DNA of 3,085 nucleotides from the IMG/VR virus record IMGVR_UViG_2541047960_000015, one strand, 5' to 3'. The notes beneath the pieces were generated by a model that saw nothing but the letters and a program-made list of their open reading frames with translations, was not told the DNA's origin and ran no database searches. The position numbers were made by a program, and so were the translations under genes. This document shows positions 75-3,085 of this stretch, piece after piece. The stretch's first letter is position 1; every line of letters begins with the position of its first letter. This DNA is from a virus. Its lineage: Duplodnaviria; Heunggongvirae; Uroviricota; Caudoviricetes.

Positions 75-1361
75 TTACCCAACTTTCTTATGGGGCATAC
101 ATGGGACACTTTCAGATAGTCTTTTGTTAAGGAGTTCTATCTGTTCGTGATTGTTGTCTTTCATCCATGCTCCGTAAACATTGAATACCATTTGTGCGTT
201 TGTGTGGCCCATCTGGCTTGCGATAAAACTAGGATTAGCTCCTGCGGCAAGTGACCAGCATGCATAAGTATGCCTGGATTGGTACGATTTTCTGTGTCTC
301 AGACCTGCGCGTTTTAAGATACTTGTCCATGACTCCCTGATGGAGTCAACCTTGTAGTGAGGTCCGGACAACTGCTGCTGTTTTGTTACCTGAGGACTAA
401 AAACAAAAGTGCATTTATGCACAGCAGTTCTCCCATATTCCCTCTGCTTCACCTCTACAGAATGTTGCTTTCCAAGCATGGTCATTTCCGCCTGGCTTTT
501 AAGAGCATCAATAGCTGGTTGAACCAGATGAATTGTCCTTCCGGTGCCTGCATCGGTTTTTGGTGGAGTGAATTCGCCAAGTTTTGTATAATTTCTACGG
601 ATGGTTATAGTCCTTGCTTTAAGGTCTATATCTTCCCATGCCAGCGATACCAACTCCCCGTGACGAATACCCGTGTATACAGCGAGAATCCACAGGTTTT
701 TTGTTTGTTGATGACGGCAAGCCTCAATAAAACGAATAAATTCGTCACGGGTGAGAGGATCTGGTTTTACCTTGGACTTTTTTAAGGGAGCCAGACCGTT
801 AAATGGGTTTCCTGAGGTATAACCATTATCTGTTGCAAATTGAAACATTCCAGCTATGGTTGTCATATAGTAGTTTACCGTGACCACTGAGCGCCCTTTT
901 ATGGAAGAAGTCTTTCCATTAGAAAGCTTTTGGTAACCGGTCAACAAATCTCTCCTTACGAAAAGTAAATCCTCTTTTGTTATGGATGAAACCAGTTTTT
1001 TTTCACCTAACATTGGTAACATGTTTTTAATTACTGACTGGTAACGGTTAAGTGCATTCGCACAAATCTCAATTTTCTTAAGGTCCAACCATTTTTCCGA
1101 AAGTGCCTTAACGGTTATCTCTCTTTTTCCCAGACCAAAGTGTTTCAGGTTAGGGGAATTAGGGAACTGCGCGGCGTAGTCGAAACTCCCCATTCTGATT
1201 GCAAAACAAACGGAAGTGCGAAGTTCACCAGCGATCTTCCGGTTTTTGGCTGTGTCAGGAACACCGAGGTTTTCTCTGACACGTTTGCCATTATAGTGAA
1301 ACCATATACGGAGTGATCCTCCATGGTTTTCAACGCCTGTCGGGTATGATGCGTTACTCAT
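75..1361 (-). CDS. int: Prophage integrase, tyrosine recombinase family (IntR/Rac-like; N-terminal arm-binding region plus C-terminal catalytic domain)
   Basis: Uninterrupted 428-aa ORF. ATG at 1359-1361 is preceded on the minus strand by GGGAGG (SD) with a 4-nt spacer; TAA stop at 75-77. The C-terminal part carries tyrosine-recombinase signature blocks: 'AVYTGIRHGEL' (box I Arg), 'SRHTYACW' (box II Arg-His) and 'GHTNAQMVFNVYGAW' (His plus candidate nucleophile Tyr). The N-terminus 'PTGVE..G..RIWF...GKR.RE' and overall layout match my recollection of E. coli Rac IntR and related lambdoid integrases. Not confirmed by search. Confidence 0.95.
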   Translation of the reverse strand: MSNASYPTGVENHGGSLRIWFHYNGKRVRENLGVPDTAKNRKIAGELRTSVCFAIRMGSFDYAAQFPNSPNLKHFGLGKREITVKALSEKWLDLKKIEICANALNRYQSVIKNMLPMLGEKKLVSSITKEDLLFVRRDLLTGYQKLSNGKTSSIKGRSVVTVNYYMTTIAGMFQFATDNGYTSGNPFNGLAPLKKSKVKPDPLTRDEFIRFIEACRHQQTKNLWILAVYTGIRHGELVSLAWEDIDLKARTITIRRNYTKLGEFTPPKTDAGTGRTIHLVQPAIDALKSQAEMTMLGKQHSVEVKQREYGRTAVHKCTFVFSPQVTKQQQLSGPHYKVDSIRESWTSILKRAGLRHRKSYQSRHTYACWSLAAGANPSFIASQMGHTNAQMVFNVYGAWMKDNNHEQIELLNKRLSESVPCMPHKKVG

Positions 1362-1394: not shown

Positions 1395-1649
1395 TTAACC
1401 GGAACTTGCATTTTTGGCACCTGGTTGTTTCTGGTTTTCGATCCATCGCATAATTTCTTCGATGTTGTACAGGCATTCACTGTAGTGCCCCGGATCACCT
1501 TCTACAGCGTAATGGCGGTATTCTTTTCCCTGCATCCATGACTTTCTTCTTGCCCGCTCAATGGTGCCAGGCTTTAGCCCTGTTGATGCAATGAGGACTC
1601 TCTCCGTACACCATTTGCTGGGGGTTATCTGATAGATGATTGTCTGCAT
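1395..1649 (-). CDS. xis: Excisionase-like protein (putative Xis / recombination directionality factor)
   Basis: 84-aa ORF immediately upstream of and co-oriented with int (33-nt gap). ATG at 1647-1649 is preceded by GAGGT (SD, about 5-nt spacer). The pattern 'W...(12)..TGLKPGTIERARRKSWM.GKEYRHY' resembles the lambdoid excisionase-like fold (Trp ... Thr-Gly ... basic wing). Size and position are typical of xis. Confidence 0.8.
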   Translation of the reverse strand: MQTIIYQITPSKWCTERVLIASTGLKPGTIERARRKSWMQGKEYRHYAVEGDPGHYSECLYNIEEIMRWIENQKQPGAKNASSG

Positions 1650-1667
1650 GCCAACCTCATAAAATTT

Positions 1668-1802
1668 TCATCCACGGCAGTGGCACCACACTTCAAACAT
1701 TCGCTTCACAACTTCACGACAGTAGAAGCCGTCAACATCTCGCGTCAGGTCATAGCGATTGCCGTAACGCTGGTGGACCCATCGTTCAAATGCTTTATTC
1801 AT
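1668..1802 (-). CDS. Small hypothetical prophage protein (44 aa), not in the supplied ORF track
   Basis: Own translation: MNKAFERWVHQRYGNRYDLTRDVDGFYCREVVKRMFEVWCHCRG, ending at TGA 1668-1670. Strong SD (AAGGAAG) 6 nt upstream of the ATG. It tightly fills the gap between the upstream ORF stop (1806) and the xis RBS/start (1649), and is co-oriented with the operon. No family recognised. Confidence 0.5.
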   Translation of the reverse strand: MNKAFERWVHQRYGNRYDLTRDVDGFYCREVVKRMFEVWCHCRG

Positions 1803-1805
1803 TCT

Positions 1806-2048
1806 TTACTTCCTTTTTATGGCTCGTAATTTTTTCAGGTGCTTTTCCTGCTCAGTGTCCGCGAGAATTTTGCGGTACCCCTGGTGGTCAATATGTTCGA
1901 ACAGGCAGTTTAACTCACCAATGCGTACCCGCCCGGATCGTCCGTCCATCCGTCGAAAGAACACTGAGTGCTCAGTGATGCGAGTAATCACCACGGGGTA
2001 TCCAGCTCTGTCCGTGTATATCTGACCGCGTTGAATCAAAGCGAACAT
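1806..2048 (-). CDS. Small hypothetical lambdoid prophage protein (80 aa); possibly DUF4222-type small family (from memory, unverified)
   Basis: ORF-track entry 1806..2084 begins at a TTG with no RBS. The in-frame ATG at 2046-2048 is preceded by GGGGA (SD, 7-nt spacer), so I place the start there, giving MFALIQRGQIYTDRAGYPVVITRITEHSVFFRR.... Co-oriented with the operon; stop TAA 1806-1808 sits 3 nt from the next start. The 'G.IY.DR.G.PVVI.R......FFRR' pattern recalls a small conserved prophage family, but I cannot confirm it. Confidence 0.6.
   Translation of the reverse strand: MFALIQRGQIYTDRAGYPVVITRITEHSVFFRRMDGRSGRVRIGELNCLFEHIDHQGYRKILADTEQEKHLKKLRAIKRK
1809..1815 (-). promoter_or_regulatory. 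Shine-Dalgarno sequence (AAGGAAG) for the 44-aa ORF, embedded in the 3' end of the upstream gene
   Basis: Minus-strand sequence reads AAGGAAG-TAA-AGA-ATG: SD, then the stop codon of the upstream 80-aa ORF (1806-1808), one codon, then ATG at 1800-1802. This is a translational-coupling arrangement. Confidence 0.5.
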
Positions 2049-2132
2049 GTGGTTATCCCCATCGACAAATCGAGAACACAACAAACGCTGCTGCGAATAC
2101 CACCCCCAGAGTTACGATTGCATCAGGCCAGC

Positions 2133-2795
2133 TCATTGATTCACCTCCTGCCTGTCGTCCGGCATTCGCTCACTACAGCTTATCCAACCATCCGGAGTTA
2201 CCGGAGAGTTGCCCGATAGTGCATTCTGCTCCAGTGATGCTTTTACAAACCACGCTGCCTGAACTATAACGCCATGAATCCAGCGCAAATCAGCATCGCG
2301 ATCTTTCTTTTTCATCTTTTCGCCACTTAAGGCCTTGCTTATGTGGCTGCGTACCAGGTCTTCATGTAATTCCTTCGCCTCCTCAATGGTGAAACCACCA
2401 GGCAGAAGAGCCGGAGTTACCGGAGAGCTGGTTGACGCTTCCGGGATTTCCCGAAAATTATTGGTTGACGAATTCTTGCTTTCCCGAAAGTTTCCGGACT
2501 GAAGCATGGCGGTGCGGCAGGCGTTCCATATTTCGGCAGCAATATCGCGCTCGCTATCGGTTAATTTGTACGTGGAAACATAGCCAGAGAGCATTTCTAC
2601 GTTTTCCGGAGTTGCTTCTTCCGGCACTACCGGCGCTGGCAAGGCAGCGTGATAGTAGAGTGGCATAGTTTTGTACAGTGGTTCGCCAGGACTTCTGTCA
2701 ACCTGATTCCATTCTTCAACCCAGGCATCAACAACCGCTTTGCTGGTTGATACATGTTCTTCTGAATCTACATTTTGTCCTGATATACAGAACAT
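2133..2795 (-). CDS. Ea22-like / DUF551-like modular early-region prophage protein, 5' region disrupted by IS insertion (220 aa from first ATG; frame stays open up to the IS junction at 2869/2870)
   Basis: 220-aa ORF from ATG 2793-2795 (preceded by AGAGG, 5-nt spacer) to TGA 2133-2135. The same frame continues upstream without a stop through 2796-2869 (...LDIRDNIERRAYEIALASLEAEAV-M...) and only terminates inside the IS end, so the native N-terminus appears to be cut off or separated by the IS. The C-terminus 'SPVTPDGWISCSERMPDD' resembles the start of the DUF551 motif (W-I-x-x-x-E-R-L/M-P) seen in Ea22-like proteins, but the protein ends only 8 residues later. Family assignment is from memory. 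Confidence 0.7.
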   Translation of the reverse strand: MFCISGQNVDSEEHVSTSKAVVDAWVEEWNQVDRSPGEPLYKTMPLYYHAALPAPVVPEEATPENVEMLSGYVSTYKLTDSERDIAAEIWNACRTAMLQSGNFRESKNSSTNNFREIPEASTSSPVTPALLPGGFTIEEAKELHEDLVRSHISKALSGEKMKKKDRDADLRWIHGVIVQAAWFVKASLEQNALSGNSPVTPDGWISCSERMPDDRQEVNQ

Positions 2796-2869
2796 AACTG
2801 CCTCTGCTTCCAGCGATGCCAGAGCAATTTCATAAGCCCGACGCTCAATATTGTCTCGGATGTCCAGGC

Positions 2870-2894
2870 TGAACCGCCCCGGGAATCCTGGAGA
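2870..2894 (+). repeat. Putative left terminal inverted repeat (IRL) of the IS3-family element
   Basis: Terminal about 25 bp beginning TGAACCGCCCCGGG. Length is assumed from typical IS3-family IRs; the right IR is not in the window, so the extent cannot be verified by self-complementarity here. Confidence 0.5.
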
Positions 2895-2923
2895 CTAAAC
2901 TTCCTGAGAAAGAGGTAAACAGG

Positions 2924-3085
2924 ATGACTAAAAATACTCGTTTTTCCCCCGAAGTCCGTCAACGGGCAGTCCGTATGGTTCTGGAAAGTCAGAGCGAATA
3001 TGACTCACAATGGGCGACAATTTGTTCCATTGCTCCAAAGATTGGCTGTACGCCGGAGACTCTGCGTGTCTGGGTTCGCCAGCAT
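2924..3085 (+). CDS. IS3-family transposase OrfA, N-terminal 54 codons (helix-turn-helix region); truncated by the window edge
   Basis: ATG at 2924-2926 is preceded by AAGAGG (SD, about 8-nt spacer). Translation [54 protein letters not shown] is open to the window end. HTH-like segment '[18 protein letters not shown]'. Confidence 0.9.

Follow-up and report, generated by a model that had tools for sequence, protein, structure and literature searches.

The DUF551/Ea22-type gene described here lies on the minus strand of a 3,085-nucleotide (nt) stretch of DNA from a virus of the class Caudoviricetes (IMG/VR record IMGVR_UViG_2541047960_000015; the whole stretch is called the window below). Close to its 3' end, this gene very probably carries a recombination scar, left when recombination at a 9-nt repeat removed the core of the DUF551 domain (47 codons) in frame from a parent of the type represented by P0017, a cluster of full-length proteins of 314 amino acids (aa) found on 14 contigs. 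The missing part of the gene is the interior of the DUF551 domain and not the end of the domain. The finding is a well-resolved new example of ordinary phage mosaicism, not a new kind of element.

A preliminary description of the window had noted an incomplete DUF551 motif at the C-terminus of a 220-aa open reading frame (ORF), and this was borne out. The ORF ends ...SPVTPDGWISCSERMPDDRQEVNQ (...GWISCSERMPDDRQEVNQ) at a TGA at 2135..2133, as described. The Pfam profile of DUF551 (PF04448, 68 positions long) matched residues 203-218 (window 2189..2142) with 24.7 bits and E = 4.5e-5, and only profile positions 1-16 were covered. The score is above the gathering cut-off of 22 bits, so that the match is beyond chance, and the intact form of the protein, P0001, was also above the cut-off with 24.2 bits. 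The C-terminal HW(M)P(L)P motif region was left unmatched in the window protein, which therefore does not contain a complete DUF551 domain. The full-length relative P0017 matched positions 1-68 with 56.1 bits. Since the four predicted beta-strands of DUF551 are gone, the DUF551 domain is presumably functionally deleted in the window allele. The Ead_Ea22 profile (PF13935) did not match the 220-aa ORF (E<=10) or P0001 and P0017 (E<=1), and was matched by neighbouring genes in relatives.

The 120 best matches to the protein were used as the homologue set, and 108 of them carried a complete DUF551 domain after the same upstream sequence. In the alignment with these full-length homologues, which the preliminary description had suggested, the upstream body was shared, the sequences diverged after S(E/D)R(M/I)P and they reconverged at the tail. 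Beyond this motif, the full-length homologues continued for 49-70 residues, which belonged to one or another of at least 10 mutually unrelated core types, and all 108 came back to ...HW(M/I)PLPEPPQEV with a stop within 1-4 residues. Their common tail was HWMPLPEPPQEV(NQ) and stop. The boundary motif PDGWISCSERMP (WISCSERMP type) was invariant in the 108 homologues with their at least 10 unrelated cores, while DDRQEVNQ endings like that of the window were found in 10 clusters of the 120. At the position of DDRQEV, other cores had DDGQHV, EKGQNV, DDKQYV or EIRQTV. At the DNA level, about 2400 E. coli genomes matched, and most of them aligned only from about 2155-2161 to 2205 with 93-100% identity; these boundary-only genomes shared just 45-50 nt. 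Read from these alignments, a gene of this family has a body that varies in its N-terminal and middle parts and, after it, a DUF551 cassette with a conserved 5' boundary, a freely swapped core of about 50-60 residues and a conserved 3' tail.

The preliminary description had also proposed that the gene was cut off at its 3' end. This did not hold, because the last five codons, the stop and the downstream DNA were the same as in ordinary full-length DUF551 genes of this module, such as gp05 of Stx2a_WGPS2 and those in PhiR12_1 and at many IMG/VR loci. The WGPS2 gp05 protein ended ...WMQLPEPPQEVNQ, and its tail, stop and downstream DNA were the same as in the window. Full-length alleles ended ...PEPPQEVNQ with the DNA GCAGGAGGTGAATCAATGA, again the same as in the window. 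Full-length relatives with the same upstream body ended at the same TGA, and this TGA is therefore the ancestral stop. Whether full-length homologues also end at this point had been put forward as a test of truncation. They did share the stop, but about 47 more codons preceded it. In phage JLK-2012, the tail of gp05 (L004 2771-2800) differed by 1 nt (GGGGTGAATGATGA) and read ...PPQGVNDELA before the stop; the DUF551 gene of that phage reads into the start region of the small ORF described below, and the stop/start overlap is altered.

It might be argued that the short tail is native, WISCSERMP..QEVNQ being an independent motif into which full cores were inserted later. The short tail is present on many intact genes, and one protein, P0018, resembles a core placed ahead of the scar. 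However, DUF551 is a widespread domain of 68 positions that also occurs as a stand-alone protein, 108 of the 120 close homologues were full length, and the scar joins N-terminal codons of a single, specific core type (23 nt identical) to the common tail. We consider a native short tail very unlikely.

The junction could be placed at base resolution by comparison with L010, the DNA of P0017. The P0017 protein ends ...SERMPDDRQEVVVQTHSGWRYIAFYESHSGLFYDSPEGDVEYVFVTHWMPLPEPPQEVNRG (MPDDRQEVVVQ...PEPPQEV). The window was identical to L010 over the 469 nt that precede ATGCCG and over a further 23 nt, ATGCCGGACGACAGGCAGGAGGT, down to position 2143 (492 nt). The 23-nt stretch, identical to the start of the P0017 core, includes the rare AGG. 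From 2151 to the TGA (GCAGGAGGTGAATCAATGA), the window was identical to five full-length alleles, and downstream of the junction it differed from PhiR12_1, which has a full core, by 6 mismatches in 330 nt. The two parental registers overlapped in the 9-nt sequence GCAGGAGGT at window 2151..2143. L010 contained two copies of CAGGAGGT, 141 nt (47 codons) apart, one encoding the N-terminal (R)QEV of the core and the other the universal C-terminal (P)QEV. Because each flank matches a different parental register and the two overlap by 9 nt, the scar appears to be the product of recombination within a direct repeat. The preliminary description had suggested a mosaic junction at which a different 3' module or gene was swapped in. 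A recombination junction was indeed found inside the interval concerned, at 2151..2143, but its 3' side was the ordinary DUF551 tail, so that no different gene had been joined there.

The proposed course of events is as follows. The P0017 core type begins with DDRQEV, and a second copy of GCAGGAGGT therefore lies about 141 nt upstream of the real tail copy. Recombination between the 9-nt copies would drop the 47 intervening codons in frame, either by slippage or illegitimate recombination within one genome or by a misaligned crossover between two phages. The product would be GWISCSERMPDD-R-QEV-NQ and stop, with the scar DNA GACAGGCAGGAGGTGAAT. The original stop, AGGAGGTG, a 27-codon ORF and, further downstream, the DUF4222 gene, the 44-aa ORF, xis and int all survive. 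The tail with its 'null core' has since been exchanged among many upstream bodies, as the other cassettes have.

The event may have taken place between two phages, a P0017-type gene having been joined through its N-terminal QEV copy, by unequal crossover, to another phage's module of tail, small ORF, DUF4222, xis and int. This is a version of the explanation given above and does not contradict it, with the 3' side regarded as 'foreign', and the 3' module swap of the preliminary description survives only in this form, as a misaligned crossover that joined a P0017-type 5' part to the normal tail of the module. Wherever P0017-type cores are known, the tail and the genes downstream are different ones, searches of complete genomes and IMG/VR gave no direct parent, and the downstream module also follows many other cores and, in some loci, an unrelated gene, all of which would agree with an exchange between phages. 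On the other hand, the 3' sequence that was joined starts within the usual DUF551 tail and is therefore not a different gene, the product equals that of an intramolecular deletion, and the sampling of the P0017 type is thin (14 contigs). We hold the intermolecular version to be possible, at somewhat less than even chances.

The deleted allele was not confined to the window. The junction was spanned in 168 of 5426 complete E. coli genomes, including O104:H4 C227-11, and 49 of the 168 also shared the same upstream 200 nt. The isolated phage PhiR5_1 carried the scar within an intact gene of 252 aa. Among the fetched loci, 51 places bore the scar, namely 49 deleted alleles, the copy in the window, which is cut by an insertion sequence (IS), and P0018/L014. 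The upstream bodies of the 49 deleted alleles were intact, with frames open throughout and lengths of 139-314 aa, and at least 10 different ones were represented; one deleted allele had the point variant NDRQEVNQ. The scar allele is established and is neither an artefact nor a one-off.

Several results weigh against a deletion from a P0017-type parent. The direct parent would consist of the P0017-type core (GACGACAGGCAGGAGGTTGTTGTTCAAAC) followed by GTGAATCAATGA (GGTGAATCAATGAGCTGGCC) and the small ORF. A BLAST search with such a constructed parent, at >=80% coverage, did not find it in the 5426 complete E. coli genomes; only deleted alleles were returned, aligned in two pieces that spanned 214 nt of the record where the query spanned 355 nt. 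An exact scan of IMG/VR for the P0017 core gave 0 matches. In the P0017 loci that are known, the tail differs (QEVNRG and stop), and so do the downstream genes (antA-like, Exc and an Arm-DNA-bind_1 integrase). As the parent was not found and the P0017 loci carry another tail, we can only infer the polarity of the event and its intra- or intermolecular nature. The AlphaFold2 model of P0017, built on a 27-sequence alignment, was of low confidence (mean pLDDT, the predicted local distance difference test, 48.9; about 50-64 in the DUF551 part). Finally, the full core of P0018/L014 runs into HWMPLPDDRQEVNQ and stop, which would allow a different parent.

P0018 (L014 86-1003) comes from a single metagenomic contig and has HWMPLP-DDRQEVNQ and stop, with the DNA CTGCCGGACGACAGGCAGGAGGTG, that is, the scar after a complete core. 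A P0018-like parent (SERMPDD...HWMPLPDDRQEVNQ and stop) could have given the same product by deletion between TGCCGGACGAC repeats, and CTGCCGGACGACAGGCAGGAGGTG at the 3' end of L014 speaks for this. Nevertheless, P0018 is known from one contig, its 5' motif is SERIPDDK and not SERMPDDR, and its PLPDDRQEV departs from the near-invariant PLPEPPQEV, which is more simply explained if P0018 is a secondary recombinant that acquired the scar. We therefore judge a P0018-like parent unlikely; P0018/L014 probably arose by a secondary recombination event at the microhomology TGCCGGA. DDRQEV fits the pattern of the family and PLPDDRQEV is a singular exception to PLPEPPQEV, so that deletion from a P0017-type parent is the parsimonious reading.

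The stretch between the DUF551 gene and the next gene also bears on how the scar is read. The preliminary description had pointed out a TAA at 2114..2112 after the TGA at 2135..2133, and an 80-aa ORF further downstream in the same frame. Both statements were correct: six codons (AGLMQS) lie between the two stops, and the 80-aa ORF (ATG 2048, stop 1806) is in the DUF551 frame, since 2135-2048 = 87 nt. These features had led to the suggestion of a decayed longer gene, in which DUF551 and the 80-aa ORF once formed a single frame that was split by nonsense mutations to TGA and TAA. Apart from the common reading frame, a read-through translation nominally extended the Pfam alignment to profile position 42. 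The gain was only 1-2 bits (25.6-26.7 bits against 24.7), however, and nothing matched the C-terminal half of the DUF551 profile. In addition, full-length DUF551 genes end at the same TGA, and the stops in the read-through frame lie at differing positions in other alleles. The shared frame of the two genes follows from geometry, -1 (the ATGA overlap) + 84 + 4 = 87 nt, and is no evidence of a former fusion; in JLK-2012 the frame relation between the two genes differs from that in the window. The downstream gene is a complete DUF4222 gene, annotated as an 80-aa coding sequence in all related records, and it is a separate gene and no continuation of the DUF551 gene. The in-frame stops had been taken as a sign of decay, but the 84 nt in question are a conserved 27-codon ORF in another frame. 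Decay of a longer gene is accordingly an extremely improbable explanation.

The small ORF begins with an ATG at 2136, the A of which precedes the TGA (ATGA), and ends with TAA at 2055..2053, 4 nt before the ATG of the DUF4222 gene. The TAA at 2114..2112 lies inside it and out of its frame. The sequence AGGAGGTG (2149..2142), which is complementary to the 3' end of 16S rRNA, lies 5 nt upstream of the ATG (intervening GAATC, 2141..2137). Copies of the small ORF were gathered with a regular expression that fixed the start, a WP..A motif and RWG-stop; with this definition it was exactly 27 codons long in 84 of 84 loci, with 10 DNA variants and 7 peptide variants. The AGGAGGTG 8-mer was found 5 nt before the ATG in 81 of the 84 loci. 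Variable columns numbered 13, 7 and 20 at the first, second and third codon positions, and the ratio of nonsynonymous to synonymous differences (pN/pS) between divergent alleles was 0.35-0.6. Replacements were of hydrophobic residues for hydrophobic residues, and the mean Kyte-Doolittle hydropathy over 19 aa was 2.0-2.75.

The contexts of the small ORF were varied. In 15 IMG/VR loci of the L064 type (about 1160-1204), and also in L100, an unrelated gene ended 33 nt before the small ORF and ACGCCGCAGGAGGTGAATCAATGA was kept. Because the Shine-Dalgarno (SD) sequence and the small ORF are kept behind an unrelated gene, this point marks the left edge of a conserved module made up of the small ORF, DUF4222, xis and int. 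On the downstream side, the small ORF was seen with three different contexts, one of them an intrinsic terminator and another a different gene, and therefore it appears to travel with the 3' end of DUF551 genes. A divergent allele in L102 (701-830, E. coli ECMA0423) and in L103 follows a DUF551 gene and is itself followed by a terminator-like hairpin, AAAAACCCCGGATTGATGGTCCGGGGTTTTT, and not by DUF4222. None of the related records inspected carried an annotation of the small ORF, and an ORF of 84 nt is probably shorter than the common gene callers accept. The peptide allele of the window was absent from a collection of 15 billion proteins in an exact look-up, while a sibling allele was present there in a few records as 'hypothetical protein'. 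A full-text search of the literature gave no mention of the peptide sequence.

Taken on these sequence features, the spacer is probably a small membrane-peptide gene and not decayed coding sequence, and the small ORF may well be translated. The observations on the scar and on the spacer can be joined into one proposal, to which we give about even chances. A real membrane peptide of 27 residues would be translationally coupled to the DUF551 genes of Escherichia and Shigella lambdoid prophages, the near-invariant PPQEV tail of these otherwise hypervariable cassettes would be kept as its SD sequence, and the 9-mer would act as a recombination hot spot that gives rise to 'null-core' alleles from which the peptide is still expressed.

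The gene in the window is also interrupted at its 5' end. The frame is open from 2870 to the TGA at 2133. The intact form, P0001 (263 aa, at least 24 contigs), was 100% identical over all 220 aa and had 43 extra N-terminal residues, and alignment with the uninterrupted locus L097 confirmed the 263-aa form. Alignment with L097 and with the IS copies L098 and L099 placed the break at 2870-2872, after about codon 18. The left end of the IS reads TGAACCGCCCCGGGAATCC..., and its terminus TGAACCGCCCC is common to copies named 'IS3 family transposase' by PGAP; the terminal repeat begins with TG. OrfA (ATG 2924) matched HTH_Tnp_1 with 31.2 bits, and the window ends 162 nt into OrfA. The element presumably resembles IS629/IS1203. 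None of the 5426 complete E. coli genomes shared the IS/gene junction. The gene in the window is thus both core-deleted and 5'-disrupted. The features of the window are listed in the table.

Table. Features of the 3,085-nt window around the core-deleted DUF551 gene.
Feature	Coordinates	Strand	Remarks
IS3-family element, left end	2870..3085	+	OrfA ATG 2924
DUF551/Ea22-type gene, retained part	2133..2870	-	codons ~18-263 of the intact 263-aa P0001, and stop
220-aa ORF of the mechanical ORF list	2795..2133	-	start is an internal Met at 2795
DUF551 cassette 5' boundary, PVTPDGWISCSERMP	2160..2204	-	45-nt DNA common to otherwise unrelated alleles
DUF551 remnant, GWISCSERMPDDRQEV	2142..2189	-	profile positions 1-16 of 68 (Pfam)
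Probable crossover interval / deletion scar, GCAGGAGGT	2143..2151	-	9-nt overlap of two parental sequences
Shine-Dalgarno-like sequence, AGGAGGTG	2142..2149	-	also encodes QEV of the DUF551 tail
TGA, ancestral DUF551 stop	2133..2135	-	ATGA overlap with the small-ORF start
Unannotated 27-codon ORF, MSWPDAIVTLGVVFAAAFVVFSICRWG and stop	2053..2136	-	predicted single-pass membrane peptide
DUF4222 gene, 80 aa	1806..2048	-	PF13973, 50.9 bits, profile positions 2-53 of 53; PHROG 285
44-aa ORF	1802..1668	-	PHROG 3871
Excisionase (xis)	1649..1395	-	DUF1233
Tyrosine integrase (int)	1361..75	-	

In related complete genomes, mlrA/yehV adjoins the corresponding prophage end. An antisense ORF of 83 aa at 1968..2219 (+) spans the site of the scar and overlaps three conserved minus-strand genes. 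It had no Pfam match and, given this overlap, it is probably spurious. A search of the whole window against Rfam (E<=1) gave no RNA element in the 84-nt spacer and, elsewhere, only a sub-threshold match to a eukaryotic snoRNA. A promoter and terminator scan of 1600-3085 gave no candidates in 2050-2170, and the overall counts were at the level of shuffled sequence. A sequence search of the PDB with P0017 gave no solved relative. Several relatives (P0006, P0014 and P0015; L006 1753-2265) carry the NCBI name 'dTDP-6-deoxy-L-hexose 3-O-methyltransferase'. Scans of P0001 and P0017 with Pfam and NCBIfam gave no methyltransferase domain, and the name is probably a propagated mis-annotation.

The scar offers a clean natural example of a 9-nt microhomology through which a protein domain would have been removed in frame in a temperate phage, and the apparent deletion product has spread through E. 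coli prophages, including relatives of Shiga toxin (Stx) phages and O104:H4. It also concerns annotation, as automatic pipelines keep the label 'DUF551 domain-containing' despite the lost domain and miss the 27-codon ORF entirely. A real peptide would mean that lambdoid prophages have an additional small membrane protein in their early-left (int-proximal) accessory region, and it would explain the conservation of the DUF551 tail at the DNA level.

The closest known systems are the Stx-phage Ea22 variant V2, YfdS of the E. coli prophage CPS-53, ORF5 of BP-4795 and gp05 of Stx2a_WGPS2 (PF04448 / IPR007539). They have the same WISCSERMP motif and the same QEVNQ tail and stop, and the gene likewise stands just upstream of DUF4222, xis and int. 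In contrast to these, the window protein keeps 16 of 68 profile positions and has lost the core, about 47 residues that include the predicted beta-strands. In Stx phages, Ea22 proteins have been described as mosaic, their C-terminal domains being variable and DUF551 being a portable domain that YfdS also contains (Goddard et al. 2024, PMC10834534), and YfdS has been linked to H2O2 sensitivity (PMC4776307). The tail motifs were sought in the supplement of PMC10834534, where nothing was found to equate 'Ea22 V1' with the present allele. The lambda Ea22 / Ead family (PF13935) is a second point of comparison. Annotators labelled the PhiR5_1 gene 'Ea22', the gene has true Ead_Ea22 genes nearby in the early-left accessory region, and an ...ARIALASLEAE.. 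linker is common to that family and the gene in the window. Unlike lambda Ea22, the protein has no match to PF13935 and no lambda-type C-terminal domain.

The putative small peptide resembles small hydrophobic peptides of phages and prophages that are translationally coupled to an upstream gene, with a single hydrophobic segment, a start that overlaps the preceding stop as ATGA and a strong SD sequence in the last codons of the upstream gene; in contrast to those, the 27-codon peptide belongs to no family in Pfam, PHROGs or NCBIfam. The scar itself can be compared with the mosaic junctions of lambdoid phages, for which models of the Hendrix, Juhala and Clark type describe short-homology ('illegitimate') junctions and conserved boundaries. 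As in those junctions, there is a sharp switch, a 9-nt microhomology and conserved boundaries that flank exchangeable cassettes. Unlike the usual mosaic junctions, the crossover here would have occurred out of register within one domain, giving an in-frame internal deletion and no exchange of modules, and one of the two repeats doubles as a predicted ribosome-binding site.

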